Both the position numbers and the translations under genes were made by a program. The notes beneath the pieces were generated by a model. The model did no database searches. It was given only the letters and a program-made list of their open reading frames with translations, and was not told the DNA's origin. A stretch of DNA of 64,000 nt from Parcubacteria group bacterium Gr01-1014_31 (GTDB taxonomy: Bacteria; Patescibacteriota; Patescibacteriia; Buchananbacterales; GWA2-38-13): NCBI GenBank assembly GCA_007376135.1, contig VMFR01000007.1, positions 24,287 through 88,286 of the forward strand, given 5' to 3'. This document shows, in pieces, positions 13,089 to 47,007 of the stretch; within the stretch, counting starts at the first letter, position 1; every line of letters starts with the position of its first letter.

Positions 13089-13117
13089 TTGACAAATTTT
13101 TGTGATTGTGATAGATT
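13089..13117 (+). promoter_or_regulatory. Candidate sigma70-like promoter (TTGACA-17-TAGATT) that would give a ~350-nt rpoB leader
   Basis: Read directly from the sequence. Only intergenic candidate upstream of rpoB. Confidence 0.35.
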
Positions 13118-13469: not shown

Positions 13470-16859
<3,390 letters not shown>

Positions 16860-16864
16860 GCAGT

Positions 16865-25700: not shown

Positions 25701-26735
<1,035 letters not shown>

Positions 26736-26823
26736 GAGCGGAAAATATCGTACCCGACCAGCCGGCTTGTCCAGCTGGTTTTTGGCAGGGGACGCCGGTC
26801 TTCGTGGTATACTGGTCCTATCT

Positions 26824-29520
26824 ATGGAGGGGGAAAGAATACCGACGCGGTCATTTTTGCGATTTTTGTCGCTAGGTGCACTGGCGATCGGTTTTTTGGT
26901 CCATCCTCCATTCCCGGCGAGCGGCCAAACCTGCGTGCCGGATTGGTCGTGTACGGTGTGGTCAGTCTGCAGCGAGGGCACGCAAACGCGCACGTGTTCC
27001 GACCTGAACCTGTGCGGCGCGACGCGCGTGCCGCCCGAACAGCAAGCCTGCGTGGTGGGTCCGGAGATTATCACGGATGTCATTCCGACCGGCGGGGACC
27101 TGTCCGGGAACCCGACTCCAGCTCCCGGACAAGCCGCCGGCTGCAGCCCCAGTTGGTACTGCTCCGCTTGGTCGGCCTGCGAGAGTAACGCGCAGACCCG
27201 TACCTGTATTGATGCGAACGAGTGCAATACGACCGCAGGACAACCGGCGCAGTCGCAGTCGTGCGATGCGGCGGCACCCTGTTTTCCAAGTTGGAGCTGC
27301 AGTTCGTGGTCCACTTGCCAGGATAATCTGCAGACCCGTACCTGCGCGGACGCCAATACCTGCGGCAGCGATGATGGCAAGCCGGCGACAGCGCAGGCCT
27401 GCACCGTCGTGCCGGCGGCAACTCCGACTCCGACGCCGACGCCCGCACCGACGCCCACGCCGGCGGAAGTACTACCACCGGTGAACGGGCCGGATACCGT
27501 CGCGCCGGCGATTTCCGCAGTCGCGGTAAGCGGCGTGACGCAGAATCGCGCGGCCGTGACCTGGACGACGAATGAGCCAGCTGACAGTACCGTCCGCTAC
27601 GGCATCGGCCAGACCAATTTGACCGCAGCCGACAGCGCGCCAGTCACGGTGCACGGCATTGTTTTGAATAATCTTTCCGCCGGCGCGACCTATACGGTCG
27701 GGGTGAGCAGCCGCGATGCGGCCGGCAACACGGGCTACGCCGATGCCTTCAGTTTTACCACCCCGGCAGAGCCGTCCGCTAGCGACACGTTCCCGCCGGC
27801 CATTATTGCCGTCAGCATCAGCGCCGTGACGTCCAGCGGGGCGTCGGTGACCTGGCAGACGGATGAAGCGGCTGTGAGCAGCGTCGCCTTCGGGGTAACG
27901 ACCGGGTACGGCAGTAGCGCGACATCGGCGGGCGGCGCGCGGACCACACAACATGGAGCCACCCTGACCCCGTTGTCGGCTGGCACGCTCTACCACCTGC
28001 GGGTCACCGCGATGGATGCGGCCGGCAACATGGCCATCTCGCCCGACCAGACGTTCGCCACGCCGGCTGCTGCGGCGGACGCCGATGGCGACGGGGTGCT
28101 CAATACCGTTGATTCTGACGATGACAATGACGGGGTATCCGATACCCAAGAGGCAGCGGCGGGCACCAACCCGCTGCAACCGGACACCGACGGCGACGGC
28201 ACATCGGACGCCAGTGATCCGTTCCCACTGCTGACCACCGAGAACGGCGACGCCGACGGCGATGGCATCGGTAATGCGGTTGACCCCGACGATGACAACG
28301 ACGGTTTGCTTGATGCTCACGAGCAAGTCCTGGGGACCAATCCTTTGCGGGCGGACACCGACGGCGACGGTACCCCGGACGCCAGCGATCCGACGCCGCG
28401 CAGCGGCGGTGCGGTGACCGGGAGTGCGAGCGATACCGACGGCGAAGGCTTGTTAGACGCGATCGAGCAAATATTAGGAACCAGCGCCGCAAGTGCCGAC
28501 ACCGACGGCGACGGCGTTTCCGACCGCGACGACCCTTTTCCGCGCGACCCGCAGGAAAGCCGTGACACCGACGGCGACGGCCGCGGCGATAATGCCGATA
28601 CCGACGATGACAATGACGGGCTATCGGACGTCCTGGAGCGGCAACTCGGTACTTCGGGGGTAGCGGCCGATTCGGACGGCGACGGCGTTTCCGACCGCGA
28701 CGATCCGTTCCCGACCATAGCGGCGCTTCCGGCGTGGGCGCAGAGCGCGGAAAACGGAGGCAGTACGGTCTCGGGGACCGCGGCGGTGAGCGTTCCGCCG
28801 CGATTTGCCAGATTGGTCCGCAACCAGAAGGGCGAACTGTTCCTTTTACTTCCCAGCGGGATCCGGCGTCCGTTCCGCCGTCCACAGGACGCATCACGGT
28901 TTGGCTTGCGGGCGGACACCGCCGTGCTGGTCGACGATGCCACATTGGCGAAATATCCGCTCGGGGCCGCGATCGGTCCTGACGAGCAGGGGGTACTGGA
29001 GTGGCTTGATACCGACGGTGACACGCTGTCGGATGCGCGCGAATTAGCGCTGGGCACCAAGCCCTGGCAATCGGATACTGATGGGGATACCTTCAGCGAC
29101 GGCGACGAACAGGCCAAGGGGTTTGACCCTCTCTACCCGCCGCAGCACGCGTCGCCGACCCCCGAGCTGGTGGCACGGGCGCGCGGGCGCGTGATTGCCG
29201 GTGTTGATCATCCCCAGCCGTTGTACTACGTCCTTCCCGCGCGCGGGTGGCGCGTGCCGTTGCCGGACGAGGCGACGTTCTGGACGGTGGCGCGTGCGTT
29301 CCATCTCCCCGTGCCGGCAGGCCGGCTGCAGACGCTGCCAGCAACTGCCGCCGATGGGCAGTTGCTCTTGGATGGGCAGGACGGCCGGCTGTACTACCGT
29401 CGTGCGGGCGTAAACCTCCGCCTGCAGCCGGGACAGGTTCTGACGCAACTGCGTACCTCGGCGCTGACCCTGACCGCTGACGAAGTTGCGTTGCTTCCCT
29501 ACCGTTGGGTGGCGCGTTGA
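26824..29520 (+). CDS. Large secreted Ca-binding protein: signal peptide, four Cys-rich QTRTC repeats, two FN3-like domains, at least ten thrombospondin-type-3 repeats, C-terminal domain
   Basis: Signal RSFLRFLSLGALAIGFLV. Repeats C.P.W.C..WS.C....QTRTC.D.N.C occur four times. DTDGDGVSDRDDPFP-type repeats throughout the middle third. Confidence 0.75.
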   Translation: MEGERIPTRSFLRFLSLGALAIGFLVHPPFPASGQTCVPDWSCTVWSVCSEGTQTRTCSDLNLCGATRVPPEQQACVVGPEIITDVIPTGGDLSGNPTPAPGQAAGCSPSWYCSAWSACESNAQTRTCIDANECNTTAGQPAQSQSCDAAAPCFPSWSCSSWSTCQDNLQTRTCADANTCGSDDGKPATAQACTVVPAATPTPTPTPAPTPTPAEVLPPVNGPDTVAPAISAVAVSGVTQNRAAVTWTTNEPADSTVRYGIGQTNLTAADSAPVTVHGIVLNNLSAGATYTVGVSSRDAAGNTGYADAFSFTTPAEPSASDTFPPAIIAVSISAVTSSGASVTWQTDEAAVSSVAFGVTTGYGSSATSAGGARTTQHGATLTPLSAGTLYHLRVTAMDAAGNMAISPDQTFATPAAAADADGDGVLNTVDSDDDNDGVSDTQEAAAGTNPLQPDTDGDGTSDASDPFPLLTTENGDADGDGIGNAVDPDDDNDGLLDAHEQVLGTNPLRADTDGDGTPDASDPTPRSGGAVTGSASDTDGEGLLDAIEQILGTSAASADTDGDGVSDRDDPFPRDPQESRDTDGDGRGDNADTDDDNDGLSDVLERQLGTSGVAADSDGDGVSDRDDPFPTIAALPAWAQSAENGGSTVSGTAAVSVPPRFARLVRNQKGELFLLLPSGIRRPFRRPQDASRFGLRADTAVLVDDATLAKYPLGAAIGPDEQGVLEWLDTDGDTLSDARELALGTKPWQSDTDGDTFSDGDEQAKGFDPLYPPQHASPTPELVARARGRVIAGVDHPQPLYYVLPARGWRVPLPDEATFWTVARAFHLPVPAGRLQTLPATAADGQLLLDGQDGRLYYRRAGVNLRLQPGQVLTQLRTSALTLTADEVALLPYRWVAR

Positions 29521-29535
29521 GAGCATTTGTGAACG

Positions 29536-29566
29536 GCAAAAAAAGACCCCGGTGGGGCCTTTTTTA
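29536..29566. terminator. Candidate bidirectional terminator between convergent genes
   Basis: A-run, ccccggtgggg hairpin, T-run. Confidence 0.4.
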
Positions 29567-29573
29567 TGTTTAG

Positions 29574-30149
29574 CTACTGGTTGACGCGCTCTACGTACTC
29601 TCCGGTTTGGGTGTTGATACGCACCACGTCACCTTCGTTGATGAATAAGGGTACGGCAACCTCAGCGCCCGTTTCGATGGTGGCGACCTTGGTGACGCGC
29701 CCCTGGGCGGAATCGCCTTTGACGGCTTCGGGTGCGGCGGTGATCTTAAAATCCATCTTCGGCGGCAGGTCAATGCCAACGGCTTTGTCGTTGAACGTCC
29801 GCAGTTCCAGGGGCGTCCCTTCCCGCAGAAAGGGCAGTGCGGCGGCTACATCCTCGCGGGATAAACTTACCTGTTCGAACGTCTCGCCGTCCATAAAATA
29901 GGCTTCCGTGTCGGTGGTGTAGAGGAACGTCGCGTCCTTGCGGCCGACCTCGGCTTCCTCGACGCGGTCGCCCGGTTTGAAGGTGATCTCCAATACCTTG
30001 CCGTTGATCAGGTTGCGCAACTTGGTCTGCATCACGGGTTTGCGCTGCTGCATTCGGACGAAGTTCGCATGCAGCACCACGTAGGGCTCGCTGCCGTAGA
30101 CAATGGCAACGCCTTGTTTGATGTCGTTGAGCGATGAGAGAACGGCCAT
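29574..30149 (-). CDS. efp: Translation elongation factor P
   Basis: MAVLSSLNDIKQGVAIVYGSEPYVVL...KPG-loop region and three beta-barrel domains. The ORF-track 5' extension begins with GTG and is probably not used. Confidence 0.9.
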   Translation of the reverse strand: MAVLSSLNDIKQGVAIVYGSEPYVVLHANFVRMQQRKPVMQTKLRNLINGKVLEITFKPGDRVEEAEVGRKDATFLYTTDTEAYFMDGETFEQVSLSREDVAAALPFLREGTPLELRTFNDKAVGIDLPPKMDFKITAAPEAVKGDSAQGRVTKVATIETGAEVAVPLFINEGDVVRINTQTGEYVERVNQ

Positions 30150-30244
30150 AGAGAGTTTAGTTTGTAGGGAGTAGTTGGGTAGAAGTAGATCGAACGGCCG
30201 GTTCACGTTACCTACTATTGACTACTACCTACTACCTCGTTCAC

Positions 30245-30478
30245 TTAGCGGGTAAGGAACGGGAGGAGCGCGATGATGCGGGCGCGTTTGATGGCCGTCG
30301 CCAGCTTGCGCTGGTGTTTGGTGCAGACCCCCGACTTGCGTCGCGGCACGATCTTCCCGTAGGAGGAAATGTAGCGGCGCAGCGTCATGATGTCCTTGTA
30401 GTCCACGACCGGGATGTTGTGGACGCAGAAGTGGCAATAGCGGTCTTTGGCGAGCGGGTTGTTCTTGGGTCGAATCAT
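30245..30478 (-). CDS. rpsR: 30S ribosomal protein S18
   Basis: 77 aa. Conserved [32 protein letters not shown]. Confidence 0.9.
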
Positions 30479-30577
30479 AGAAAGTAGTAGTGCACAGTGC
30501 TCAGTTCCCCGTGCTCAGTGCTTCGGATTTTTCGTTCGATCGGCGGTGCGGAGCACTGGGTACAGTGTACGGAGCAC

Positions 30578-31024
30578 TTAAAATGGGATATCTTCAACCT
30601 TGATCTCCTCGCTGTCGGCCGCCGGCGCTGCGGGCGCGGCAGGAGCAGGCGTCGGGGCCGGTTGCGATGGCGCACTCGCCGGCTGTCCCGCGTTGGCGCG
30701 GCCATCCAGCATGATCATGCTTTCCGCAACTATTTCGGTGCGGTTGCGGTTGCTTCCGTCCTGCGCCTGCCATTGGCGGGTCTGCAGCCGGCCCTCAATG
30801 TAGATGCGGCTGCCCTTGCGGAGGTACTGGGCGATAGTTTCCCCCAGCTTGCGCCAAGCAACGACGTTATGGAACTCTACCTTCTCCTGTTTTTTTCCCG
30901 TCGTGTCGGTCCACACCAGGTTCGTGGCGACCGAGAACGTGGTGACCGTCGCGCCATTCGGCGTGGTGCGCGTCTCGGGGTCGCGCGTCAGGCGGCCGAT
31001 GATCATCGCTTTGTTGAGGTCCAT
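30578..31024 (-). CDS. ssb: Single-stranded DNA-binding protein
   Basis: OB-fold MDLNKAMIIGRLTRDPE..., Pro/Ala-rich tail ending in the acidic DIPF motif. Confidence 0.9.
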   Translation of the reverse strand: MDLNKAMIIGRLTRDPETRTTPNGATVTTFSVATNLVWTDTTGKKQEKVEFHNVVAWRKLGETIAQYLRKGSRIYIEGRLQTRQWQAQDGSNRNRTEIVAESMIMLDGRANAGQPASAPSQPAPTPAPAAPAAPAADSEEIKVEDIPF

Positions 31025-31109
31025 AGAGAAAGCGTAAAGTGTAAAGCGCAAAGCGAAAAATATATCGGCCGATTGTTTTGCGTTTTTCGCTTTTCGTTTT
31101 GCGTTTATC

Positions 31110-31535
31110 TTAGATGATATCCTTGGTCAGTAGTTCGTCGAGCTTGCGGTCCAGGTCGGCAAGTTTGGCCTGCTGCCGGTCCTCTTGTTTGCTCTCTTCG
31201 GTCGCCGCCGCCGTTGGCGCCGTCGGTGCGGGCGCGGCTTTTCGGGTGACCTCGCTGCGCTTGACCAGCAGGTGGCGTACGACATCGTTGTGCAGGCGCA
31301 GATCCTGGTCGAGCGCGCGCACGGTGCCCGCTTCGGCGTCGAAGTGCGACAGCAGGTAGTAGCAGGTCGTTGCCCCCTTGATGGGGTAGGCGAGCCGCTT
31401 TTTGCCGAGGCTATCTTCGAAGGTGACCTTGCCGCCGTGCTTGATCACCAGGTCGCGCACCTGGCCGATGACGCCGCCCAGTTCATCTTCGGCGTACTTG
31501 GTTGGCACGAGGTACATCAGTTCGTATCGGGTCAT
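31110..31535 (-). CDS. rpsF: 30S ribosomal protein S6 with C-terminal extension
   Basis: MTRYELMYLV...; gene order S6-SSB-S18 is conserved. Confidence 0.85.
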   Translation of the reverse strand: MTRYELMYLVPTKYAEDELGGVIGQVRDLVIKHGGKVTFEDSLGKKRLAYPIKGATTCYYLLSHFDAEAGTVRALDQDLRLHNDVVRHLLVKRSEVTRKAAPAPTAPTAAATEESKQEDRQQAKLADLDRKLDELLTKDII

Positions 31536-31727
31536 AGTGTAAACGATAAACCCGGGGTTTTCCCGGGTACAAAGTCGCCAGCGTCCGTTCCTGGAACGGG
31601 CCGCGGCACCTTTGTCCGGGGGCTTTGCCCTGGGACGAGTCCGAATTTCTCGGACCCATGGGAAAGGTAATGATTCTATTGTAGGATTATGCTAGCAAAT
31701 GATCCGTTGTTCGTCAAGGATACGGCT

Positions 31728-32858
31728 ATGCCCCATCCAGCTACCGTTTTTTTGCTTGGGAGAACCCCCGAGATTGCCGCGGCGGAACTGGCCGCGGTTT
31801 TGCCGCAGGAGGAATTATTTCCTCTGACGCCGCAGGTACTCCGTTGTCCTACCGCCGTACCGGACGCGCCTGCTCTGCTGTCCCGCTTGGGCGGCACGGT
31901 CAAGATCGGCGAAGTCATCGCCAATAAATTCACTCCTGCGGCCGTTGCCGATGCGATCGCGCACCAGCATTCCGGCGGCAAGGCGCTGTTTGCCATCAGC
32001 TGGGTCAATGGGCAGAAGAACGCGGCAACGCTCGCCGCCGGCCTGAACGTCAAAACCCTGCTCAAACAACGCGGCATTAACGCCCGGCTGGTAACCTCGC
32101 GTGCGCCGCAACTGCCGGCCGCAGCCATCAACCGGCACGGCGCGCGGGAATTTACGGTGCTGTCGGACGGGAGCGTCGCGCGCATCATCGCGGCCCAGGA
32201 CGTGGACGACTTCACGCGGCGCGACGTGGGCCGGCCGCATCGCGACGTGAAGTCCGGCACGCTCCCGCCGAAACTCGCGCGGATGATGGTGAACCTCGCG
32301 CAGGTGCCGGCGAACGGAACGCTGCTGGACCCGTTCTGCGGGTCGGGCACGGTGCTCTCCGAAGCGATGCTGTCCGGTGTTGCGTCCGTGCTCGGTTCCG
32401 ACGTTTCCGCAAAAGCGGTCGGCGAAAGCCAGGCAAATCTCCGCTGGCTGCAACAGCAGTACCCGGAAACTGCGGCCGCCCACTGGCAGGTCTTTGTCGC
32501 CGATGTGCGGCAGTTGGAAAAAACGCTGGGTCGCCAGAAAGTCGCAGCGGTCGTTACCGAGCCATTCTTGGGTCCGCCCCGCCGGGGGCGGGAGACTCGC
32601 GCTCAACTGCAGGCCGTGATACAAGAGCTGACCGCGCTGTATACCGATGCGTTCGCACAGTTCGCGAAGGTGGTGGCAGACGGCGGACGGGTCGTATTTG
32701 CCCAACCTTCATTTACCCACGGCGGCGAAGTACTGACGCTGGAGCTGGATGCTGCCGTCACGCAGCTCGGGTTCACCCGGAGTGGCGGACCCTACCCGTA
32801 CCACCGCCCCGATCAGCACGTCCTGCGAAGCATTTCAGTGTGGGAAAAAAATATGTGA
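31728..32858 (+). CDS. THUMP-domain RNA (guanine-N2-type) methyltransferase, Trm14/TrmN/RlmL-like
   Basis: N-terminal THUMP-like region, then PPKLARMMVNLA and SAM motif I LLDPFCGSGT, then DPPY-equivalent region. Confidence 0.6.
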   Translation: MPHPATVFLLGRTPEIAAAELAAVLPQEELFPLTPQVLRCPTAVPDAPALLSRLGGTVKIGEVIANKFTPAAVADAIAHQHSGGKALFAISWVNGQKNAATLAAGLNVKTLLKQRGINARLVTSRAPQLPAAAINRHGAREFTVLSDGSVARIIAAQDVDDFTRRDVGRPHRDVKSGTLPPKLARMMVNLAQVPANGTLLDPFCGSGTVLSEAMLSGVASVLGSDVSAKAVGESQANLRWLQQQYPETAAAHWQVFVADVRQLEKTLGRQKVAAVVTEPFLGPPRRGRETRAQLQAVIQELTALYTDAFAQFAKVVADGGRVVFAQPSFTHGGEVLTLELDAAVTQLGFTRSGGPYPYHRPDQHVLRSISVWEKNM

Positions 32859-32969
32859 GTGCCGATGGCAACCCCCCAAGGTTAAATTAAAAGACCCTGC
32901 TCCGACTGCGGTTGCGGTTATCCACCGGCAAGATGTCAATTTCGACACCCCGGTGTATAGTGTGAGCAC

Positions 32970-35957
32970 ATGGAGCCGCAAATCAGGACTCTCGTGAAAG
33001 CTTCCGTGGCTACCACCGCTTCTGCTGCGGCAATGTTGACCGTCAGCGCGGTGGCTTTATTTGTGTCGTGGGGATCAATGATGGTTGCCGTTGGCGGGTC
33101 GCTGGGAATTCAGCAAGCCAGATCAACTATCCCAACATCAGGTCTCAGCCTGTCTAAGAGCGAGAGCATTACGTGCCCGAAGATTTTGTATAGAACTTTT
33201 GATTTTGCTACATCGAAGGCCGCCGATAGTATTGCCGAAAGCAAGGTGTTGCAGCTCAAGGAAGATATAGCCCGTCAGGCCAGAATTCGTCAGGTTGAGC
33301 GCTCATTACGAAGGGTGGTTGAGGGGAAAAAGAGCATTACCGATCTTGGGGAGCAGCTTGTTCAGTATCAAAATGCCTTTATTAACCTGATGCGGTCAGA
33401 ACCAACAGCGGCGCTTCGGTATCTCCCTGATCAGGACATGCTCGATTCATTCGGAGAAACAACAGAAAACTGCTTACCCAAGGAAACCCATGAAACCGGC
33501 AGTATGCTGGTGGTACATGCGGATGATTTTGAGAACGAAACGAGTAAAACCGAATATTCCATAAAAACCGAATTTGGGAAGAAATTAATCCTCCATTTCA
33601 CAAAGCAGGATAAATTCATGGAGTCGCGCACAAAGATCAAAATCGCCAAGGGGTATGAGATAAATGGAGAGCTATTGGTAGAGGATTATGAAGTACTATC
33701 GCAACCCGGCAATCCTCCGGCCCTTGGCCCCCAGAAGACCATCGTGGTCGAGATTCGGCCAAGAATTATCGTCTCTGGCGGCAGTTCTGCCGCCGTCGGC
33801 GATGCCTTTCTCACCCCAGAGGAGATACGGCAAGACGTTTTCACCTCAATCGCCCAATTTTATTCCCAGAATTCCTATAACCAACTTCAAATTGTGGGTC
33901 AGGATGGGTTGTCCGGAAATACCGATGATGTTATTGGGCCCGTTCCAATGGATATCACCATTCCAAAATTTTGGTGCAGTTTAGGCGGCACAGAACAGGC
34001 TTGCGAGCCAACCAATCCTCTTAATTGTGCGCGCGGTGATGGCGCCGGGTGTACGCCGAGGAACCAAAATTTATGCCAGCAGGGTGAAGTAAACGGAAGC
34101 TGTGTCCCGGAGTGCTCATTCGATGAACTGCAACAAAAACTCGTTGCCGCGATTGATCCCGTGATCACATTTCAGAATAACGAGCGCATCATTGGCGTTC
34201 TGCCGGAAATACTTTATTGCGGCTGGACCGGTATTGCCAATATAGGTTTAGCGGACACAAAAATCGCGGATGACCCAAATCCCATCCCGCTTTCTTTCAC
34301 TTTTGCCATTCCTCGCATTGGGAAGACGCGTGAAGAGAACAGATACTATGGGGTAAGAACCTTGGCGCACGAAATGGGGCACAATTATGGGAATTTACAT
34401 GCCACGATGTGGGCCTGCTCCAATACGAAGGACCAGGTGCAAAGCTGGGAGGGGCAATCACCGTGTTTCTATGAATACGGAGATCATTTTGATGTCATGG
34501 GGCGGGGTTATCTGCCGAACAGCAATGCCGTCTTAAAAGAAAATCTTGGATGGCTTCCGTCGCAGGACAATAACCATGAGATGCTTATACTTGGGGTAAC
34601 CGATGGCGGGACCTATACTCTTCAACCTATGGGAAGCGGTGGCGTGGAAGCAATAAAAATTCCGCGTAATATGCAAAATACTGATTTTCCAAATCTCTAT
34701 ATTGAATATCGGCGCCCCGAAGGACTGGACAGCAAACTTCCTGATTTTTTTGTAAAACAAGGGCTTGCTTCGGATGTCTTTGAGGGTGCCACGATCCATT
34801 TGGGTAATGCCATGGGCCAGTCATTTCTCATTGATGCCAAACCGCCATACACCACGTCTCTTATGACCGCCTTGCCTTTTGGTGGGAGCTATTATGATCC
34901 GTATTCGGGAGTGAGGATAACCTTAGGGAATGATTCGCCAGGCGGATTGCCCGTCACCATAGTATTTGAAGATATTGATAATGAAGGACCTTTCGTTTCA
35001 GGGTTGCAGAAAATCAGTTCACAAGACTGCGTGGTTGTTTATGAAGCCGCGGCACAAGACCCGAGCGGGATATCCAAGGTGGTGTTCAACCCCGCTCTTC
35101 CAGACCTTGCCCAAGAAGTGGCTGGTCCGCCATACCGTTGGGAAGTGAATTTGATGGATTATCCCGAACAGTATTTGTCCTTTCGGGCATACGACAATAG
35201 CCTGTTGAGGAATTATTCCGACAGCGAAAAAATGGATTTATGGGCGGATGAACCTTTGTGCGCGCATAACATAAAAGTGAAATTCTACTCTCCGTTGGAA
35301 AATTCAGTGCAGAGCAATACAGTAGCGTTTCGTTTCGACGTTTATTCACCGAGTGGGTTAATGCAGGTATTGTCCGACGTAACAGATGGATATGGCCAAC
35401 GTACGCGTATTATTGAAAATTGGATAACCGAACTCGGCCCTTCGGTGATGGAACGGTCATACCACGTTGAGGAAAATCTTATCGGCGGAAGATACCGTTT
35501 CGGCCTGGAAATTATCAATATGGAAGGGCGCACGTTGCGTTTTTTCCACTATTTTGATGTTCGTAATGCCTGCAACGACGGAATAGACAATGATCATGAT
35601 GGAACGATCGATTACGGGGGTGGAGGATCGGGCGGAGACCTCGGATGTGAGAGTGTTGATGATAATAGCGAGGAATCGACTTTTTATCGTTCTGACGTCG
35701 ACATGAGCGGGGGAGCAAATATGACGGATGCCATAATTATTTTGCGCCATTTATTTTTTAGTGACCCTGTCGCTCTTTCCTGCCAGGATGCCGCAGATGT
35801 TGACGATAGCGGGTTTGTGAATATCACCGATCCCATTTATCTACTAAAGTATCTGTTCGCTACTGATAATCCACCGCCGCCCGCGCCCTATAACCAATGT
35901 GGGCTTGATATGACCAGTGATACCATCGGCTGCCGCAGTTTCCCTTCCTGCGAGTAG
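32970..35957 (+). CDS. Secreted zinc metalloprotease (HEMGHNYGNLH zincin motif) with a C-terminal dockerin-like module. The gene is conspicuously AT-rich.
   Basis: HExxH...H motif at ~34370. C-terminal segment MTDAIIILRHLFF...LSCQDAADVDDSGFVNITDPIYLLKYLFATDNPPPPAPYNQCG matches the module of the 9036-11659 protein. Confidence 0.7.
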   Translation: MEPQIRTLVKASVATTASAAAMLTVSAVALFVSWGSMMVAVGGSLGIQQARSTIPTSGLSLSKSESITCPKILYRTFDFATSKAADSIAESKVLQLKEDIARQARIRQVERSLRRVVEGKKSITDLGEQLVQYQNAFINLMRSEPTAALRYLPDQDMLDSFGETTENCLPKETHETGSMLVVHADDFENETSKTEYSIKTEFGKKLILHFTKQDKFMESRTKIKIAKGYEINGELLVEDYEVLSQPGNPPALGPQKTIVVEIRPRIIVSGGSSAAVGDAFLTPEEIRQDVFTSIAQFYSQNSYNQLQIVGQDGLSGNTDDVIGPVPMDITIPKFWCSLGGTEQACEPTNPLNCARGDGAGCTPRNQNLCQQGEVNGSCVPECSFDELQQKLVAAIDPVITFQNNERIIGVLPEILYCGWTGIANIGLADTKIADDPNPIPLSFTFAIPRIGKTREENRYYGVRTLAHEMGHNYGNLHATMWACSNTKDQVQSWEGQSPCFYEYGDHFDVMGRGYLPNSNAVLKENLGWLPSQDNNHEMLILGVTDGGTYTLQPMGSGGVEAIKIPRNMQNTDFPNLYIEYRRPEGLDSKLPDFFVKQGLASDVFEGATIHLGNAMGQSFLIDAKPPYTTSLMTALPFGGSYYDPYSGVRITLGNDSPGGLPVTIVFEDIDNEGPFVSGLQKISSQDCVVVYEAAAQDPSGISKVVFNPALPDLAQEVAGPPYRWEVNLMDYPEQYLSFRAYDNSLLRNYSDSEKMDLWADEPLCAHNIKVKFYSPLENSVQSNTVAFRFDVYSPSGLMQVLSDVTDGYGQRTRIIENWITELGPSVMERSYHVEENLIGGRYRFGLEIINMEGRTLRFFHYFDVRNACNDGIDNDHDGTIDYGGGGSGGDLGCESVDDNSEESTFYRSDVDMSGGANMTDAIIILRHLFFSDPVALSCQDAADVDDSGFVNITDPIYLLKYLFATDNPPPPAPYNQCGLDMTSDTIGCRSFPSCE

Positions 35958-35968
35958 CGCGTGATACC

Positions 35969-35998
35969 ACAAGGACAGGATTCCCATCCTGTCCTTGG
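35969..35998. terminator. Hairpin between convergent genes (candidate bidirectional terminator)
   Basis: caaggacagga-ttccca-tcctgtccttg perfect 11-bp stem. Confidence 0.45.
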
Positions 35999-36022
35999 TT
36001 GTGCTTATGGTAGGGTCGCGGT

Positions 36023-37075
36023 CTAGACGTTGAACCGGAACACCACCACGTCGCCGTCCTGCACGAGGTAGGTTTTGCCTTCCTGGCGGACGAGGCCCCT
36101 GGCCTTGGCGTTCGTTTCGCCGCCGCAGTCCAGCAGCGTTTTCCAGTTGATGACCTCGGCGCAGATAAAGCCGCGTTCAAAATCGGAATGGATTTTGCCG
36201 GCGGCTTCCGGCGCGGCCGCACCCTTGCGCACGGTCCACGCGCGGGTTTCCTTCGGTCCGGACGTGAGAAAAGTGATGAGCCCCAGGGCCTCGTACGCGG
36301 CGCGAATCAGGCGGTCCAGCCCACTGGCGGAAAGGCCGAGTTCTTTGAGGTAGGCGGTGCGTTCGGCATCCTCCAACTCGGCCAACTCCGCCTCGATCTT
36401 GGCGCAGATAGTGACGGTACCGGGGAGGTCGGTGCCGGCCTGGGCTTCATCCACGTTGCTGATCTCAAGGATGGGTTTGAGCGTCAGCAGGTTGAACGAT
36501 TTGACGACGGCAAGCTCTTCCGTCGAGAGGGGAAGTTCGCGCGCCAGTTTTCCCTGGTCGAGATGGGCCTTGAGTTTCGCCAGCACCGTGGCGGCCGCCT
36601 GGGCGTCCTTATCCTGCCCCTTGGCTTTTCGCAGCTCTTCGTTCAACCGTTTTTCCACGGTCTGCAGGTCGGCGTAGATAAGCTCCAATTTGATGGTTTC
36701 GCGGTCTGCCGCCGGGTTGACGACGCCGCTGACGTGGATGATGTTGGGGTCACTGAAGCTGCGCACCACATGCGCGATGGCGTCCACCTCCCGAATGTGG
36801 GAGAGGAATTTATTGCCCAAACCCTCGCCTTTGTGGGCGCCCTTCACGAGGCCGGCGATGTCCACGAACTCCACGGCCGTCGGAATGACTTTCGCCGACT
36901 GGTTGAGTTGGGCCAGCTGCGCCAAGCGTTCGTCGGGGACCGTGACGACGCCGACATTCGGCGCGATGGTGCAGAACGGGTAGTTGGCGATATCGACGGT
37001 TTTTTTGGTCAGCGCCTTGAAGAGCGTGCTTTTACCGACGTTGGGCAGCCCGACGATGCCGATGGCAAATGACAT
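36023..37075 (-). CDS. ychF: Ribosome-binding ATPase YchF (Obg-family GTPase)
   Basis: G1 GIVGLPNVGKST, NYPFCTI, G4 and TGS domain at the C-terminus. Start at MSFAIG. Confidence 0.9.
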   Translation of the reverse strand: MSFAIGIVGLPNVGKSTLFKALTKKTVDIANYPFCTIAPNVGVVTVPDERLAQLAQLNQSAKVIPTAVEFVDIAGLVKGAHKGEGLGNKFLSHIREVDAIAHVVRSFSDPNIIHVSGVVNPAADRETIKLELIYADLQTVEKRLNEELRKAKGQDKDAQAAATVLAKLKAHLDQGKLARELPLSTEELAVVKSFNLLTLKPILEISNVDEAQAGTDLPGTVTICAKIEAELAELEDAERTAYLKELGLSASGLDRLIRAAYEALGLITFLTSGPKETRAWTVRKGAAAPEAAGKIHSDFERGFICAEVINWKTLLDCGGETNAKARGLVRQEGKTYLVQDGDVVVFRFNV

Positions 37076-37230
37076 AGAGATGAAAATGGCTGACGAGGGC
37101 GCAGGATGTGAGTACTTCGTCCTTTGGCGAATGGTGGTTATTGTGGTATACTCAAGCCACTTCGTCAAGCATGCTGGAGGCGCAAGTGCGGTTTTTGGTA
37201 GCATCCAGCTCCATCAATAGGAGGCATTAC

Positions 37231-40200
37231 ATGGCAGACGGCAACGGCGGCAGGGGCGCCGTGCGACGGTTCCGTTCCGCGCAGTCAGCGCGAAGATTTG
37301 GGCTGGCCTGGCTGGCTGGTTTTTTTATTGCCACCGTCGCGCTGGCGCAAACGGGGACAATGAACTCCACTGCACCGGTAGTCGCTTTTGTCCGGCCGCC
37401 GAGCAGTCCTGTTGCCGCCAGCACGTTCCTGTTCGCGAGCGTCAGCACACCTCTCTCCGGTCTCAAGCAGGTGGAATTTTCGGTTCACAGCGCTACCCAG
37501 ACGTGGAAGTTTCCTGCTGATTATGTTCCCGACCTTAATTTGTGGAAATTCTACTGGGAGTTGAAGGATCTGCCCGACGACGCGTACGTGGTGACGGCCT
37601 ATGCCGCCACGACCGATGACCAGTACGGAAAGGCGGATCTGTATCTCACGGTGGCGCGGGGGAGTGGAAGTGAGAGTGGCGGTTCCGGCAGCACGACGGA
37701 TACCTCAACATCGGGAACCGCGGAAGTACCGACGGCTTCTGGCGGCACAACATCATCGGATACCAGCAGCGGCGGTGGTGGAACCGCGGCGCCGTACGTG
37801 TATATCTCCTCGCCGTCCAGCGGCACCACCGTCGGGTCGGTACTCAAGCTGCAGGCCCATGCTTCTGCCGATATTGGCGCTGTCACATTTTCACTTGATA
37901 CTACCGCGACTGCGGTTTCACCAGATGCCATCGGCAGTGCGGTCAGCTTAGGCAACGGGTTGTGGGAGTACGCCGTGGCGGCGTCGTCTGTTCCCGCCGG
38001 TCAATATACGGTTGCCGTGAGCGGCCAAGCCAAAGAGACGGCCGTAAAAGGAAGTAACAGCATCACCATCATCGTGCCGGCCCCGACCACGACGCTGGCA
38101 CCGTTCGGGGTTGCTTTCCGCAACCCGCCCGTCGGGCCAATCAGCAGCGACAAGTACCTGTTCGTGCAGTCGACCGCGTCCACGGTCACCCTGCAGCGGG
38201 TGAATTTCCGCGTCGAAGGCGTTGGCATTAACCGCGGATACGACGGCGCGCCCGTGCCTGACCTTGGGTTGTTCCAGCTCTACTGGGAGCTGAAAGACTT
38301 TCCCGATGGCAGTTACCGCATCACCGCCGATGCCCAAAGCGCTGATGGCCGGCAGGCCGCGACCGAGTTGTACCTCGTGGTCACCCGTACCGGCACCACA
38401 TCTGCTCCTCCAGTTCTCCAGTTCACTTGGCTGGAGCCGAAGGTTAGTTTACTGCAGGGGAAGGTGACGGTGGTCGTTTCCACCGATCCGGCGGTCGGGG
38501 TGTTGCAGTTGCGCTTTTTGGGCCCGGTGAACGGCAGCCTGCAGCCGGCATTGGTCAGCGGAAGATGGGTGGCAACGTGGGATACGACGAATTTGCCGGC
38601 GGGCGCCTACCAGTTGGTTGCCGTCGTGATCCAAAGCGGGGTGGCGACGGAAAGCAAACCGTGGGCGGTGCATGTCGCCTCCGCGGTCGAACCGACGATT
38701 GCCGAAGATGATTCAGACCTGCTGGTATTGACCCCAAAATCGCAGTCCGTGCTGCAGAAAGAAGCGATCTTTTCCGGCACTGCGGCCGGCGCAACGAATG
38801 TCCGGCTCACCCTGAAGAACGAGCTGCGCGCGTATGCGCTGCCGGGCGCGTTGGTACGCCCAGATGGTGGGTGGGAGCTGCTCTGGGATACGCGCAAGGC
38901 CGTGAATGGCGCGTATACGCTGCTCGCGGCTGCGGAATTCCCCGATGGGGCCGTTGTGGGCCCGTCGATACCCGTGGAGGTCAACAACGAAACGATTACC
39001 GCCGCCCCCGCTGAAGCGGTGAACGATAACCAACCGCCGTCGGTGTGGCTTGGGCCCGACCGCACCGTCACCACGCCGGTTGTTGCGCTCCATGGCGCCG
39101 TTAAAGACGACGGAAAGCCGGTTCCTCCAGGGCGTTTGACCCATCGGTGGTCGTCCCCCGAGGGAGGCGTCGCTTTTTCCCCCCCGGACGCGCTGGATAC
39201 CAAGGCCCAGTTTTCCAGCTCGGGAAAATATACGATCCGTTTGGAGGTCAGCGACGGTGTTCGTGCCGGACGCGATGAGCTGGTGGTCATTGTCGCGCTG
39301 CCTCAGGCGGAGGACAAGGAGCAGGTAGCACCGCCCCCGCTGGCGCAACTGGTCACGCCGGTTATCGTATTGCCCCAGGAGTGCCGCGCGGTGGGGATAA
39401 CGAATGCCGATGCCTGCAAGCGGTGGATGTTCGAGCATGTGCGCGAGCAAAACTGCCCCTCGGGAGGCGCGGCAAAGTCTGCCTGCGTGGACCAGCAGCG
39501 CCGCGAGTCGCTGCCCGCGGAGTGTATTCGCGAGGGTATCGCGGATGTGGCTGCGTGCCAGAACTATTTGGACCGTCGGACCCTGCCGGAAGTCTGCTGG
39601 AAGGCAGGCAAGGGCACGCGAACGGAGTGCGAGCGCTGGCTGCGGGAGCAATTGTTCGAGCCCGCTTGTCAGCAGGTCGGCATCACGGAAACGATCGCTT
39701 GTGAACAGTATTTGAAAGAACGGCTTTCCCCAACGCTGGCGTGCCGGTTGTCTGCGGCGGCGACGTGTGGACCCGTGGTGGACCGTCAATTGCCTACGAT
39801 CGTGGCCGGTGAGCAACGCTTGGAGGAACTGAATAACGCGGTGGGTGAACGGCTGAAAACGCCCATTACCCTTGACCCCGAACAGCAGCGGGTGCTGCCG
39901 ACCGCCGGAGCTCGGCCGACGGTGGAGCAGGTGGTTCCCTTCGCGCTCATCGCTCCCCTGCCGGTACAGTTCGTTCCTTCCCAGGGGGCGGTGGTCGTCC
40001 GCAAGGATGAGAGTATCACCGTGGCGGGACCGGCCGTGGTGGTGCTGGATGCCGACGGCGACGGCCTGCCGGACGACGTGGAGGAACGGCTTGGGTCGAA
40101 TCCCGCGGCTGCCGACACCGACGGTGATGGCTTCTCTGACCGCGAGGAGGTGGCGAACGGGTACAGTCCTACAGTCGCCGGAAGCATCCCCGCCGCGGTG

Positions 40201-40707
40201 GCGCCGGTCGAGCGGGCATTGGCGGCCCAGCGGCCCTTGCAACAGCCCTTGTTCATCACCGAAGCGTCGGACCGGCTGGCCGTCGACACCGTACGCACGC
40301 CGCCGGAGGTTCCCGGCGGGGGAAGCGCGCTGCAGTTCCAGGGCCGTGGCACGCCTGACGAGGTGGTAACGCTGTTCATCTATAGTTCGTTGCCGCTGGT
40401 GGTGACCACGCGCGTCAATGCGGATGGCAACTGGACCTACAGCCTGCGCCAGTCGTTGCTGGATGGCGCCCATGAGGTCTACGTCACGGTCAATGATGAC
40501 ACCGGCAGCGTTGTTTCTCGCAGCGCGCCGTTGTCGTTCTTCATCCGTGAGGCGCGTGCCGTTTCCCCGCGCGACGTGTTCAGTCCCCCGCCCGCACCCG
40601 CGGCGTACCGTCCCGCCAAGCTGTACCTGCCGATCGCGGGGTTAGTGGTTTTTGCGGGTGTTTTCCTTTTCATCGCACTCTACGGCGCGTTGCGGCGCCA
40701 CGCGTAG
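37231..40707 (+). CDS. Large C-terminally anchored surface protein: signal peptide, several Ig-like beta-sandwich domains, a Cys-rich region, TSP3 repeats, C-terminal TM anchor
   Basis: AGGAGG lies 6 nt upstream of the ATG. Cys-rich segment ~39370-39790. DADGDGLPDD/DTDGDGFSDREE repeats. C-terminal LPIAGLVVFAGVFLFIALYGALRRHA. Confidence 0.7.
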   Translation: MADGNGGRGAVRRFRSAQSARRFGLAWLAGFFIATVALAQTGTMNSTAPVVAFVRPPSSPVAASTFLFASVSTPLSGLKQVEFSVHSATQTWKFPADYVPDLNLWKFYWELKDLPDDAYVVTAYAATTDDQYGKADLYLTVARGSGSESGGSGSTTDTSTSGTAEVPTASGGTTSSDTSSGGGGTAAPYVYISSPSSGTTVGSVLKLQAHASADIGAVTFSLDTTATAVSPDAIGSAVSLGNGLWEYAVAASSVPAGQYTVAVSGQAKETAVKGSNSITIIVPAPTTTLAPFGVAFRNPPVGPISSDKYLFVQSTASTVTLQRVNFRVEGVGINRGYDGAPVPDLGLFQLYWELKDFPDGSYRITADAQSADGRQAATELYLVVTRTGTTSAPPVLQFTWLEPKVSLLQGKVTVVVSTDPAVGVLQLRFLGPVNGSLQPALVSGRWVATWDTTNLPAGAYQLVAVVIQSGVATESKPWAVHVASAVEPTIAEDDSDLLVLTPKSQSVLQKEAIFSGTAAGATNVRLTLKNELRAYALPGALVRPDGGWELLWDTRKAVNGAYTLLAAAEFPDGAVVGPSIPVEVNNETITAAPAEAVNDNQPPSVWLGPDRTVTTPVVALHGAVKDDGKPVPPGRLTHRWSSPEGGVAFSPPDALDTKAQFSSSGKYTIRLEVSDGVRAGRDELVVIVALPQAEDKEQVAPPPLAQLVTPVIVLPQECRAVGITNADACKRWMFEHVREQNCPSGGAAKSACVDQQRRESLPAECIREGIADVAACQNYLDRRTLPEVCWKAGKGTRTECERWLREQLFEPACQQVGITETIACEQYLKERLSPTLACRLSAAATCGPVVDRQLPTIVAGEQRLEELNNAVGERLKTPITLDPEQQRVLPTAGARPTVEQVVPFALIAPLPVQFVPSQGAVVVRKDESITVAGPAVVVLDADGDGLPDDVEERLGSNPAAADTDGDGFSDREEVANGYSPTVAGSIPAAVAPVERALAAQRPLQQPLFITEASDRLAVDTVRTPPEVPGGGSALQFQGRGTPDEVVTLFIYSSLPLVVTTRVNADGNWTYSLRQSLLDGAHEVYVTVNDDTGSVVSRSAPLSFFIREARAVSPRDVFSPPPAPAAYRPAKLYLPIAGLVVFAGVFLFIALYGALRRHA

Positions 40708-40717
40708 TTCTGCCGCC

Positions 40718-40827
40718 TATGCCCGGTAGTACAACCGACCAATCTATCTTTAGCGCCCACCGCCGTTCTTCCGCGTCACCGATTCCCCCCTTTTTCTACA
40801 CTCGACCGTTGTACTACCGGGTATGCC
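40718..40827. promoter_or_regulatory. Inverted pair of the ~22-nt ATGCCCGGTAGTACAACCG element flanking a 60-nt spacer. The 3' copy overlaps the histidine-kinase start codon.
   Basis: Forward copy 40718-40740, reverse copy 40800-40827. The two can form a ~18-bp helix that includes the AUG at 40823. Confidence 0.5.
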
Positions 40828-42223
40828 TCGCCCATCGGTGTTGAAACGAATGTTTGCCGATGAGCGGGTGCAGATCGGCTACGGCTTGTTGTTGATCCTC
40901 TTGATACCGAGCGCGATCATCGTCGCGACCGTTGCCACCATCGCCCGCTACAGCCAGACCATCGATATTACCCTGCAGCGGCAAGCATTGCTGGTGGGGA
41001 GGGTGTTCGGGGCGACGGTATGGGAGCAAGGGATCGCTCCCGTGACGTTGCAGCGCCGCGTGGAAGCGGTCGCCGCCGCCAACGCCGATATTCTGGGGTT
41101 GCAGGTGTTCACGCCCCATCGGGACGGTTTTGAGATCATCGCGAGTGTCGTGCCCGAGCAGGTCGGGACTGTGGCGGCGTCGGCCTACTATACCTACGCC
41201 TGGCAGCAAGCGGAGCGCGAAGGTTTGGCCACCGATTACCTCGGCGAGCCGTTGTTGGGCAGCCGTGCCGGCGCCAGCACGGGGGATCGTTACTGGCTGG
41301 TAACGCTGCCGCTGTTCGCCGACGTCGAGGGGGACGGCCACCGCGAGCGCGTCGCGCTGCTATCATTGCAGCTGTCGTCGGGCATCGTCGACGAGCAAGC
41401 GGCGGCCAGCTGGCGGTCGGCGGTCATCGGCCTGACGTTCACGGTCCTGCTGACCGTGCTGTTCTTGGCGGCGGCCACGCGGTTGTGGAGTTACGCCACC
41501 CTCTATCGTAAGATCAAGGAGGTCGACCAGATGAAGGACGAGTTCATTTCCATCGCCAGCCACGAGCTGCGCACGCCCATTACTGCCATCCGCGGCTATG
41601 TGTCGATGGCCATCGACGGTGATTTCGGTTCGGTCCCCGAGAAACTCCGGACGGGATTGGAGCGCATCAACGGCGCCGGCAAACGTCTCGGCGACCTGGT
41701 CGAGGACCTTCTGAATGTCTCGCGCATCGAGCAGGGACGCCTCAGCGTGTCGTTCCAGCCGCTGGATCTGGGTGAGGTGACTGGCGGCGTCATCGAAGAG
41801 CTGCGGCCTACCGCCGTGCAGAAACAATTGACGTGCGAGTATGTCGCGCCGACGTCTCCGGTCAAGGTGATGGCCGACCCCGACCGGCTCAAGCAGGTGT
41901 TGTTCAATCTGGTCGGCAATGCCATCAAGTATACGCCCAAGGGCAGCGTGACGGTCACCGTTAGCCTGCAGGAGCACGGCGGCTGCGTGCGGGTCAAAGA
42001 TACGGGACTGGGGATCTCGGCGGCCGACCAGGCGCGCTTGTTCACGAAATTCTATCGCGTGGCGAGCGACCAGACCCGGGCCATTTCCGGAACCGGCCTG
42101 GGCTTGTGGATCACTCGTCAGCTGGTTTCCCTGATGCGCGGGGAAATCACGCTCGAAAGCATCGAGGGTACGGGCACCCAGGTGACCGTCGTGTTGCCAA
42201 CACCGAAGTCCGCCGCCACATAG
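40823..42223 (+). CDS. Sensor histidine kinase with two TM helices and a periplasmic sensor
   Basis: HisKA H-box SHELRTPITAIRGY; N, G1 and G2 boxes of HATPase_c. No cognate response regulator is adjacent. Confidence 0.85.
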   Translation: MPRPSVLKRMFADERVQIGYGLLLILLIPSAIIVATVATIARYSQTIDITLQRQALLVGRVFGATVWEQGIAPVTLQRRVEAVAAANADILGLQVFTPHRDGFEIIASVVPEQVGTVAASAYYTYAWQQAEREGLATDYLGEPLLGSRAGASTGDRYWLVTLPLFADVEGDGHRERVALLSLQLSSGIVDEQAAASWRSAVIGLTFTVLLTVLFLAAATRLWSYATLYRKIKEVDQMKDEFISIASHELRTPITAIRGYVSMAIDGDFGSVPEKLRTGLERINGAGKRLGDLVEDLLNVSRIEQGRLSVSFQPLDLGEVTGGVIEELRPTAVQKQLTCEYVAPTSPVKVMADPDRLKQVLFNLVGNAIKYTPKGSVTVTVSLQEHGGCVRVKDTGLGISAADQARLFTKFYRVASDQTRAISGTGLGLWITRQLVSLMRGEITLESIEGTGTQVTVVLPTPKSAAT

Positions 42224-45767: not shown

Positions 45768-45899
45768 AGCGGGAGAATCAGGAAGCAAGAATCAAGAATT
45801 AGGGAATCGGTTCGTCGGTTCCACTAATTCCTTTACTCGCGCAGTTCGAGGCAGGAGAAGATCATGTTACTTTGATTGAAACTCGTACCTTTCCACTTT

Positions 45900-46298
45900 T
45901 CACCGCCTTTGAGCAGCCTCGCTCCAGAAATCGGCTGTATCTTCCTGCCCAGTAATAGAAGCCAATGCGTAAAGGCCAAAAATAATCACCATCAGTAAGA
46001 TGCCTATTGCTATGGTTTTGGTCGTGGGGCCCATCAAAATTTTGTCTTTCTTCCCTCGGGCAGAAAGATATTTACTAATTCCATAAATCGTCAAAAATAA
46101 TCCCAGAAAGAATATGAGTATCGTAATAATATTAATACCCAACATCAAATATGTTTTTGCATCCGGCTTCGCCAAGCTAACTACGGTGGCGTATGCACGG
46201 CCGTTGTTGTCATTAATTACGTAATTATTAATTTGCGCCCTTGCAATTAATGGCCACATCAGGAGGCTTGCTATTTTTGCAAAATGACTCGACCTCAC
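45900..46298 (-). CDS. Small membrane protein in an AT-rich islet
   Basis: Signal-like N-terminus plus two TM helices. The surrounding ~420 nt is strikingly AT-rich relative to its neighbours. Confidence 0.4.
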   Translation of the reverse strand: MRSSHFAKIASLLMWPLIARAQINNYVINDNNGRAYATVVSLAKPDAKTYLMLGINIITILIFFLGLFLTIYGISKYLSARGKKDKILMGPTTKTIAIGILLMVIIFGLYALASITGQEDTADFWSEAAQRR

Positions 46299-46324
46299 AA
46301 TTTTAAATGTTTAAAGAGTAAACA

Positions 46325-46903: not shown

Positions 46904-47007
46904 AACGGCAGCGTAGCAGGCAGTAAGTTTACTGGCAACGCCATTCGTTTCTTGGCAAAACCAAGCGAATTTGGTAGGCTGGGATGGACTTGGCATTATA
47001 TTTCCCT

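Follow-up and report, generated by a model that had tools for sequence, protein, structure and literature searches.

Comparative and compositional data indicate that a gene for a large modular metalloprotease entered, as a single unit, the genome of a bacterium that its sequence places among the GC-rich members of the candidate phyla radiation (CPR). The gene lies in a 64,000-nucleotide stretch of contig VMFR01000007.1, to which we refer throughout as the window. The explanation that best accounts for our data, and one that we regard as likely correct, is that the segment at 32845-36031 is a horizontally acquired single-gene insertion, which brought a complete modular surface protease from an AT-rich donor into a GC-rich CPR genome. 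The case for this scenario combines a compositional anomaly, an empty insertion site, and a comparison at the level of individual modules.

Composition and insertion site of the protease gene

The original prediction had located the protease in an open reading frame (ORF) at 32970-35957, and these limits proved exact: the ORF lies on the + strand and encodes 995 amino acids (aa). The database gene call for the same protease (P0001) begins at a GTG codon at 32994, 8 codons downstream, and yields 987 aa. The gene had also been described as AT-rich compared with its neighbors, and its composition bears this out. In 1-kb windows, the GC content is 0.48-0.49 across the gene versus 0.62-0.63 in both flanks, and a 200-bp profile reveals a sharp fall that coincides with the borders of the gene. 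The ORF as a whole has a GC content of 0.483 and a GC content at third codon positions (GC3) of 0.500; the GC3 of the 34 other long ORFs of the window spans 0.58-0.83 (mean 0.751, standard deviation 0.058), which puts the protease at z = -4.3. When the ORFs were scored in leave-one-out fashion against the codon usage of the other genes, the protease had the lowest synonymous-codon log-likelihood of all 35 (z = -3.0). Its product is also richer in FYMINK residues (F, Y, M, I, N, and K) than the proteins of the host (fraction 0.255 versus 0.204), as expected if the protease evolved in a low-GC genome; the GC content of the host genome is ~61%.

A counterpart of this locus that lacks the protease is preserved in locus L087 (contig JAUSGZ010000069.1 of assembly GCA_030648715.1). 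L087 encodes P0155, a homolog with 93% amino acid identity to the RNA methyltransferase that lies upstream of the protease gene in the window, an enzyme of the RsmD/Trm11-like type whose best database relatives come from metagenome-assembled genomes (MAGs) annotated as Patescibacteria, Buchananbacteria, and Magasanikbacteria. The gene order of L087 is that of the window (RecA, surface protein, efp, S18, single-stranded DNA-binding protein [SSB], S6, methyltransferase, ychF, and a 1,167-aa surface protein), and the methyltransferase gene of L087 stands directly beside ychF. By blastn, L087 aligns with window positions 26349-41099 in five collinear blocks of 84-97% nucleotide identity; L087 4769-6500 corresponds to window 31110-32844 at 93.7%, and L087 6628-9859 corresponds to window 36032-39254 at 87.4%. 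The gap between the methyltransferase gene and ychF is thus 127 bp in L087 (6501-6627) versus 3,187 bp in the window (32845-36031).

The left breakpoint of this segment falls within the final codons of the methyltransferase gene (...SVWARI-stop becomes ...SVWEKNM-stop), and the right breakpoint falls at the stop codon of ychF, the C terminus of which is conserved up to that stop. The segment replaces the last three methyltransferase codons and the intergenic spacer. The L087 spacer and the window segment are unrelated, each contains its own hairpin, and no gene remnant is present in L087. The site is empty as well in the more distant locus L088 (methyltransferase 60% identical), where the methyltransferase gene abuts ychF (~1878-1888). 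In locus L089 (GCA_028712155.1), four unrelated genes occupy the junction (11107-17340), so this junction is variable. The L089 genes encode a Memo/PGA_cap protein, a 550-aa protein, a protein with DUF2330 and TSP3 domains, and a 175-aa protein. Because the site is empty in two relatives, of which one is an outgroup, and because the composition of the gene is unameliorated, a gain in the lineage of the window is more parsimonious than repeated loss. The horizontal acquisition that had originally been proposed is therefore supported both by composition and by the empty site in L087.

For relatives of the protease, exhaustive HMMER searches recovered 2,988 representatives at E <= 1e-3, 43 of them at E <= 1e-30. 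A word-indexed search that returned four matches had suggested that the protease was a near-orphan, a view overturned by these 2,988 relatives. Members are concentrated in the CPR (Woykebacteria, Kerfeldbacteria, Curtissbacteria, Saccharibacteria, Paceibacteria, and others) and in DPANN archaea (Woesearchaeota and Nanoarchaeota), with more distant members in many other phyla, and the closest reference genome with a homolog is a Patescibacteria MAG. In Joint Genome Institute (JGI) metagenomes, we found no closer relative of the catalytic domain; the matches there were only to the acidic motif and the dockerin described below. The nearest full-length relative of the window protease, P0005, is encoded on L002, a second contig of the metagenome that yielded the window, and is only 35-38% identical, so the two copies do not stem from a recent duplication. 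The tetranucleotide correlation between L002 and the window is 0.92, similar to that between related genomes and hence compatible with one shared genome as well as with two related ones.

A scan with the family alignment, restricted to one genome per species, found 512 relatives. Among the 73 reference-genome loci with enough flanking sequence for a comparison, which represent hosts with GC contents from 0.29 to 0.71, the median difference in GC content between gene and flanks is 0.000; the corresponding value for the window is -0.137. Homologs in low-GC genomes match their hosts (0.42 versus 0.43 in L004; 0.42 versus 0.39 in L005). Because family members track host GC in this survey, AT-richness is not an intrinsic property of the family. 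Two further outliers resemble the window: P0005 on L002, with a gene GC content of 0.42 versus 0.62 in the flanks (10001-12901), and P0006, the next closest homolog, on L003, a locus from an independent NCBI MAG (GCA_028712155.1), with 0.43 versus 0.56 (10001-12859). The surface gene adjacent to and upstream of P0006 (L003 7201-9816), which encodes an FG-GAP/pectate-lyase-like protein, is AT-rich as well (~0.47). The AT-rich islands of L002 and L003 suggest that GC-rich CPR-like genomes have imported surface genes repeatedly. The best reading of the three outliers is that a family mostly of low GC content entered the rarer GC-rich genomes on separate occasions.

In the scenario that we favor, the segment would have taken the place of the short spacer between the methyltransferase gene and ychF after the host lineage had diverged from a relative with which it shares ~90% nucleotide identity, and the cargo would have entered as one piece, dockerin included. 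A low-GC (~40 to 48%) CPR or DPANN-type organism is the likely source, since the subfamily is concentrated in such organisms and compositionally at home there. In the absence of mobility machinery, the default guess for the mode of integration would be DNA uptake followed by illegitimate or homology-facilitated recombination.

Origin of the dockerin module and competing explanations

The protease ends in a single dockerin module with two calcium-binding loops, DVDMSGGANMTD and DVDDSGFVNITD, each of which carries D, D, S, N, and D at positions 1, 3, 5, 9, and 12. In an AlphaFold2 (AF2) model, helices at residues 910-921 and 945-955 follow the loops, as in a two-helix dockerin. The original prediction held that this is the same module as that found six times in a GC-rich resident gene (given as 9036-11659) and that it aligns with the resident copies. 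The alignment is full-length: a hidden Markov model (HMM) built from the six resident modules matches the target module at E = 2e-12 over HMM positions 1-68, and the target is the only other match of this HMM among 689 six-frame ORFs in the window. Target and resident modules have in common the pattern F-x-R-x-D...SC-x-DAAD...P-x-P...D-x-T-x-D-x-x-GC. Membership in the same dockerin family therefore stands. Identity to the host's own module does not: the target is only about 31-39% identical to the resident modules (35-39% in our first alignment, 31-38% in a larger one), which are 42-85% identical among themselves.

The affinities of the target module lie instead with the dockerins of the protease homologs. 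It is 63% identical to that of P0005 and 46-54% identical to those of P0008, P0121, P0010, P0009, and P0007. All six of the nearest homologs (P0005-P0010) have a C-terminal dockerin and the same architecture. The resident-type HMM matches 32 of the 153 retrieved proteins, nearly all of them family representatives, and the matches are nearly all C-terminal. A Cys-rich tail of the form CG...GC-x-SFP-x-C was found only on protease-borne modules; the resident modules lack the first Cys of this tail and the SFPxC ending. The GC content of the module itself is 0.46 (GC3, 0.45) versus 0.65-0.66 for the resident six-module gene. This foreign composition, the closeness to the dockerins of the protease homologs, and the conserved architecture argue that the dockerin arrived with the gene. 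Thus, of the two routes that had been left open, in which the imported enzyme either acquired the module or arrived with it, the second stands and the first does not, and the sequence comparisons identify the module as a distinct protease-associated subtype of the same broad dockerin family. Small dockerin-only ORFs adjoin protease homologs in L002 (9612-9872; 86 aa) and L006 (4273-4575; 100 aa), and the window has no equivalent.

Several explanations other than a recent single-gene import must be weighed against these data. An imported protease core could have captured its dockerin from the resident six-module gene by domain shuffling within the host, an idea in keeping with the overall module pattern common to both and with the match of the resident HMM to the target. 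We give it almost no credence: the composition of the module, its far greater identity to the dockerin of P0005 than to any resident copy (63% versus 31-38%), the Cys tail confined to protease homologs, and the C-terminal dockerins of P0005-P0010 effectively refute host capture. A mis-joining of a low-GC fragment by the metagenome assembler would be a natural suspicion for a contig with a MEGAHIT-style name (k139_644634; European Nucleotide Archive ERZ27284378), all the more so because a frameshift beside a repeat in the nearby 9012-11659 gene makes local assembly errors possible. Such a chimera is nevertheless very improbable. The insert is flanked on either side by host DNA within a 288-kb metagenomic contig, and its limits fall exactly on gene boundaries. 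Its ORF is complete and intact and is accompanied by an upstream region and a terminator of its own. Comparable AT-rich islands exist in L003, which belongs to an independent NCBI assembly, and in L002, a different contig.

The recurrence of AT-rich members on the GC-rich contigs L002 and L003 could also suggest that the gene is native and that its AT-richness is intrinsic to the family, for example through selection for slow translation, secretion, or low expression. We consider this improbable in view of the 73-locus survey, in which the family tracks host GC, of the empty site in a ~90% identical relative, which places the gene outside the conserved backbone, and of the amino acid shift that accompanies the nucleotide bias. 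A better candidate, though still an unlikely one, is an ancestral protease at this site that was deleted in L087 and L088, with the AT-richness reflecting an older transfer or a gene-specific constraint. The variable junction of L089 shows that insertions and deletions both occur here, and since the nearest homolog is only 35-38% identical, a very recent donor cannot be shown. Ancestral presence would, however, require at least two independent precise losses, the 25-point gap between a GC3 of 0.50 and a host GC3 of 0.75 argues against long residence, and the L087 spacer has an unrelated hairpin terminator of its own and no gene remnant.

A number of observations also weigh against the favored scenario of a horizontal single-gene insertion. 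The case for transfer rests on composition, empty sites, and identities, and the contig comes from a metagenome assembly. No direct or inverted repeats above chance flank the insertion, and there is no target-site duplication. Neither an integrase nor a transposase nor a tRNA lies at its borders (the sole tRNA of the window is at 8585-8658). Since the insertion bears no such mobility signature, no marker shows the route of entry. Our homolog searches found no donor for the protease, the nearest homolog being as distant as stated above. Pfam cohesin has no match among the 22 scanned proteins of the window, which leaves docking conjectural, and both protease activity and surface location are predictions from sequence and structural models. 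Apart from these points, a scan of viral contigs for protease relatives yielded four weak matches only and hence no evidence for a phage vector.

Measured against known genomic islands of horizontal origin, the insertion shares a sharp discontinuity in GC content and codon usage, presence and absence at a syntenic site, and surface-protein cargo. It differs in being a single gene without an integrase, a tRNA target, direct repeats, or insertion sequence elements, and in having displaced, along with a spacer, the three final codons of the gene upstream.

Enzyme class and architecture

From its N terminus, the protein consists of a membrane anchor, a helical and beta-sandwich region, the catalytic domain, Ig-like domains, an acidic Cys motif, and the dockerin with its Cys-rich tail. 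Coordinates are collected in the table.

Features of the inserted segment and of the protease that it encodes (positions in the window; residues numbered along the 995-aa ORF except where P0001 is named)
Feature	Coordinates	Strand	Remarks
Inserted/replaced segment	32845..36031	.	3,187 bp versus the empty site of L087; includes the protease gene with the region upstream of it and a hairpin downstream
Promoter-like site ATGTCA-17-TATAGT	32933..32961	+	within the insert, just 5' of the ORF; consensus scan, 9/12 matches
Protease ORF	32970..35957	+	995 aa; alternative GTG start at 32994 gives 987 aa; GC 0.483, GC3 0.50
N-terminal hydrophobic helix	33015..33092	+	residues ~16-41; AF2 helix 8-33 (P0001); read as a signal-anchor/transmembrane segment
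N-terminal helical region and beta-sandwich domain	33216..33794	+	residues ~83-275; AF2 pLDDT mostly > 90; conserved in P0005-P0010
M11-like metzincin catalytic domain	33843..34745	+	residues 292-592; Pfam PF05548 and Foldseek
Cys-rich insertion in the catalytic domain	33975..34115	+	residues 336-382, 8 Cys; modeled with low confidence
Zinc-binding motif HEMGHNYGNLH (HExxHxxGxxH)	34368..34400	+	residues 467-477
DVMG, candidate Met-turn	34491..34502	+	31 residues past the third His; M502 and G503 (P0001 numbering) invariant in alignment A2
Two to three Ig/FnIII-like beta-sandwich domains	34881..35570	+	residues ~638-867; all-beta AF2 segments
Acidic double-Cys motif CNDGIDNDHDGTIDY...GCESVDDNSEE	35571..35675	+	probably a calcium-binding linker; disordered in the AF2 model
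Dockerin module	35682..35900	+	residues 905-977; two intact 12-residue calcium-binding loops, DVDMSGGANMTD and DVDDSGFVNITD
C-terminal Cys tail ...CGLDMTSDTIGCRSFPSCE	35901..35954	+	by alignment, common to protease homologs and absent from resident modules
Perfect 12-bp hairpin	35970..35997	.	between the convergent protease and ychF genes; likely terminator; not homologous to the L087 hairpin

The consensus scan behind the promoter-like site is weak, with 6 sites found versus 4.3 expected by chance.

The zincin motif HEMGHNYGNLH that had been noted from the sequence is indeed present, and its H, E, H, and H residues are invariant in alignments of 10 sequences (A2) and 18 sequences (A5). Across 67 homologs, HExxH is invariant and the third His nearly so; the Gly of the downstream DVMG is likewise nearly invariant, and its Met is not among the conserved columns. 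For the peptidase family, M6, M66, and M60 had been named as candidates. The assignment falls elsewhere: Pfam Peptidase_M11 (PF05548) matches residues 292-592 with 40.6 bits, above its gathering cut-off of 21 (E = 2.1e-10), whereas the NCBIfam M6 domain TIGR03296 gives 25.7 bits, far short of its cut-off of 110.8. Of the 10 closest homologs, only 4 reach Pfam M11 at E <= 1e-3, which makes the protease a peripheral member of M11.

Structural comparisons point in the same direction. An AF2 model of the catalytic domain alone, with a mean predicted local distance difference test score (pLDDT) of 75.0 and a predicted template modeling score (pTM) of 0.81, has metzincins as all of its top Foldseek matches in the Protein Data Bank (PDB): adamalysin II, archaemetzincin, ADAM8, ADAM33, and ulilysin. 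Match probabilities are 0.87-0.99, with a best E value of 2.7e-3, none at E <= 1e-3, and low TM scores. At the sequence level, the family profile matches dockerins and one Ig domain in the PDB, with weak matches only to metzincin helices. The Cys-rich insertion falls below a pLDDT of 50 at P0001 residues 325-369, and the matching segments of P0006-P0010 are also rich in Cys. Sequence and model thus suggest a deeply divergent metzincin at the periphery of M11 and a predicted protease.

The likeness to M11 gametolysins consists of a profile match above the gathering cut-off, the HExxHxxGxxH motif, the downstream Met-containing DVMG, and nearest folds that are metzincins. The gametolysin of Chlamydomonas is an extracellular enzyme, and the window protein, too, is predicted to be extracellular, with cell-wall or surface proteins as plausible substrates. 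It differs from gametolysin in its great divergence, in its prokaryotic distribution (CPR and DPANN), and in parts that are not defining features of the algal enzymes: the Cys-rich insertion, the membrane anchor at the N terminus, the Ig-like domains, and the dockerin. The literature that we searched contained no paper linking M11 or gametolysin to the CPR or DPANN. With immune-inhibitor-A-like M6 proteases (TIGR03296) it has in common a weak similarity around the zinc-binding helix, and the distant homolog P0002 is labeled "M6 family metalloprotease-like" by JGI; the third zinc ligand of the window enzyme, however, is the His of HExxHxxGxxH, which is the metzincin pattern.

Outside the catalytic domain, the full-chain AF2 model (67-sequence alignment; pLDDT 80.9, pTM 0.73) reveals a chain built from discrete modules. 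The helical and beta-sandwich region that precedes the catalytic domain is possibly a pro-domain or a spacer. The Ig-like region has Foldseek matches to RbmA, to arrays of fibronectin type III (FnIII) domains, and to the SiiE adhesin, as well as a sequence-level match to an Ig domain of PDB entry 9kvu (E = 2.5e-5), and 4 of the 10 homologs contain Pfam Big_7. A whole-chain Foldseek search of the PDB was dominated by Ig and FnIII domains and was uninformative on the catalytic core. The acidic motif is repeated many times in P0008 and P0009 and gives a weak match to the NCBIfam model acid_disulf_rpt in P0005. The sequence of the anchor helix is unusually conserved among the closest homologs (consensus TIAASLML..SAVALFLTWG in alignment A2), more so than a generic anchor would need, which hints that the helix may act as a specific signal for sorting or interaction. 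The acidic motif, of the form CNDGIDNDxDGxxD...GC...D..SEE, also occurs, alone or with a dockerin, on many otherwise unrelated metagenomic proteins (L090-L114), and it looks like a mobile calcium-binding linker module.

The dockerin falls below the cut-off of Pfam Dockerin_1 (PF00404), with 16.8 bits versus 22.9; 6 of the 10 homologs match PF00404 at E <= 1e-3. The 10-sequence family profile matches Clostridium thermocellum dockerins of known structure (1daq and 2mte; CelS and endoglucanase SS) at E = 1.3e-7. Like type I dockerins, the module has a duplicated calcium-binding loop and helix organization. It departs from them in its extra conserved Cys residues (SC-x-DAAD and the C-terminal tail) and in being joined to a protease, not a glycoside hydrolase, with no cohesin among the scanned window proteins. 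Dockerins outside cellulosomes have precedent (Peer et al. 2009, as cited in PMC10066038). In Omnitrophota, giant proteins with dockerins have been put forward as putative adhesins, and the dockerins themselves as adhesion or targeting modules (PMC10066038); dockerin-bearing envelope proteins are reported from Saccharibacteria, among them the essential SEML1_0315 of a cultivated species (PMC10633639). With both calcium-binding loops intact, it is plausible that the module is a functional targeting device, as originally suggested. In such an arrangement, the N terminus would be held in the cytoplasmic membrane and the protease projected outward on an Ig-like stalk, with the distal calcium-dependent dockerin binding a protein or glycan partner. 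That partner would sit either on the bacterium's own surface or, if the bacterium is an episymbiont as presumed, on its host cell. Docking would then bring surface or cell-wall proteins within reach of the protease.

Other features of the window and meaning for the family

The protease shares the contig with housekeeping genes, among them those for isoleucyl-tRNA synthetase, ORFs of the size of rpoB and rpoC, FtsK, RecA, efp, the S6-SSB-S18 cluster, ychF, FolD, and serine hydroxymethyltransferase (SHMT). Interspersed among them are genes for very large surface proteins with Ig-like, TSP3, and fn3 domains. The resident dockerin gene had been taken for one protein at 9036-11659; it is instead two overlapping ORFs in a region that starts at 9012, namely, 9012-10514 with two modules and 10316-11659 with four, in frames separated by a 1-nucleotide frameshift. 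The frameshift (~10347) follows directly upon a 117-bp repeat (10230-10346) that is identical at 115 of 117 positions to the end of the gene (11513-11629). A pseudogene, a scar of gene conversion, and a misassembly at the repeat are possible explanations of the split.

Two further AT-rich stretches occur in the window. One, at 63163-63512 (GC ~0.445), lies just past the gene for a 2,129-aa surface protein; in it, two short ORFs, 63163-63393 and 63357-63512, overlap in different frames. The former may encode a protein that resembles those of the four-helix-bundle type (23S rRNA intervening-sequence type), in which case the pair would be a frameshifted gene. The other is a mostly intergenic stretch of 600 bp at 45800-46400 (GC 0.39-0.47), between the SHMT gene (44514-45788) and the 3' end of a gene for an HD-domain protein (46325-46996).

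The surroundings of the homologs also merit description. Genes for a nucleoside diphosphate kinase (NDK) and a response regulator adjoin the protease homolog both in L002 (13093-14085; GC 0.62) and in L004 (4632-5824; GC 0.43), which may represent partial synteny between genomes of very different composition. The GC-rich "Patescibacteria" contigs L003 (3589-7018 and 13657-14445) and L002 (1542-2588 and 7552-9144) carry biosynthetic genes, those for HisG, HisI, an amino acid kinase, OMP decarboxylase, DAHP synthase, and a LeuA-like protein. CPR genomes typically encode a reduced metabolism in which such genes are unusual, and these contigs may belong to atypical or mis-binned lineages.

Events in which a secreted protease is transferred horizontally are common. 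The gene described here is a divergent addition to known kinds of enzyme and a fairly ordinary, though clean, case of transfer that poses no challenge to current understanding. A more far-reaching idea, which we offer as speculation that is more probably wrong than right, is that the combination of transmembrane anchor, M11-like domain, Ig-like domains, and dockerin is an exchangeable surface effector cassette specific to the ultrasmall episymbionts of the CPR and DPANN. Such a cassette would be transferred repeatedly and irrespective of GC content, would serve in attachment to host cells or in cell-wall remodeling, and would bind a partner other than a cohesin through its dockerin with the conserved Cys tail; the junction between the methyltransferase gene and ychF would be a recurrent landing site for variable surface genes. 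If true, it would explain why AT-rich copies occur independently in three GC-rich Patescibacteria-like genomes and why Woesearchaeota and Nanoarchaeota have family members.

The single-gene import itself means that surface enzymes of the CPR can be gained as complete modular units and not by local domain shuffling in the recipient. The family to which this enzyme belongs, an uncharacterized and deeply divergent putative metzincin subfamily concentrated in the CPR and DPANN and equipped with a non-cellulosomal dockerin, offers candidates for the poorly understood interface between episymbionts and their hosts.

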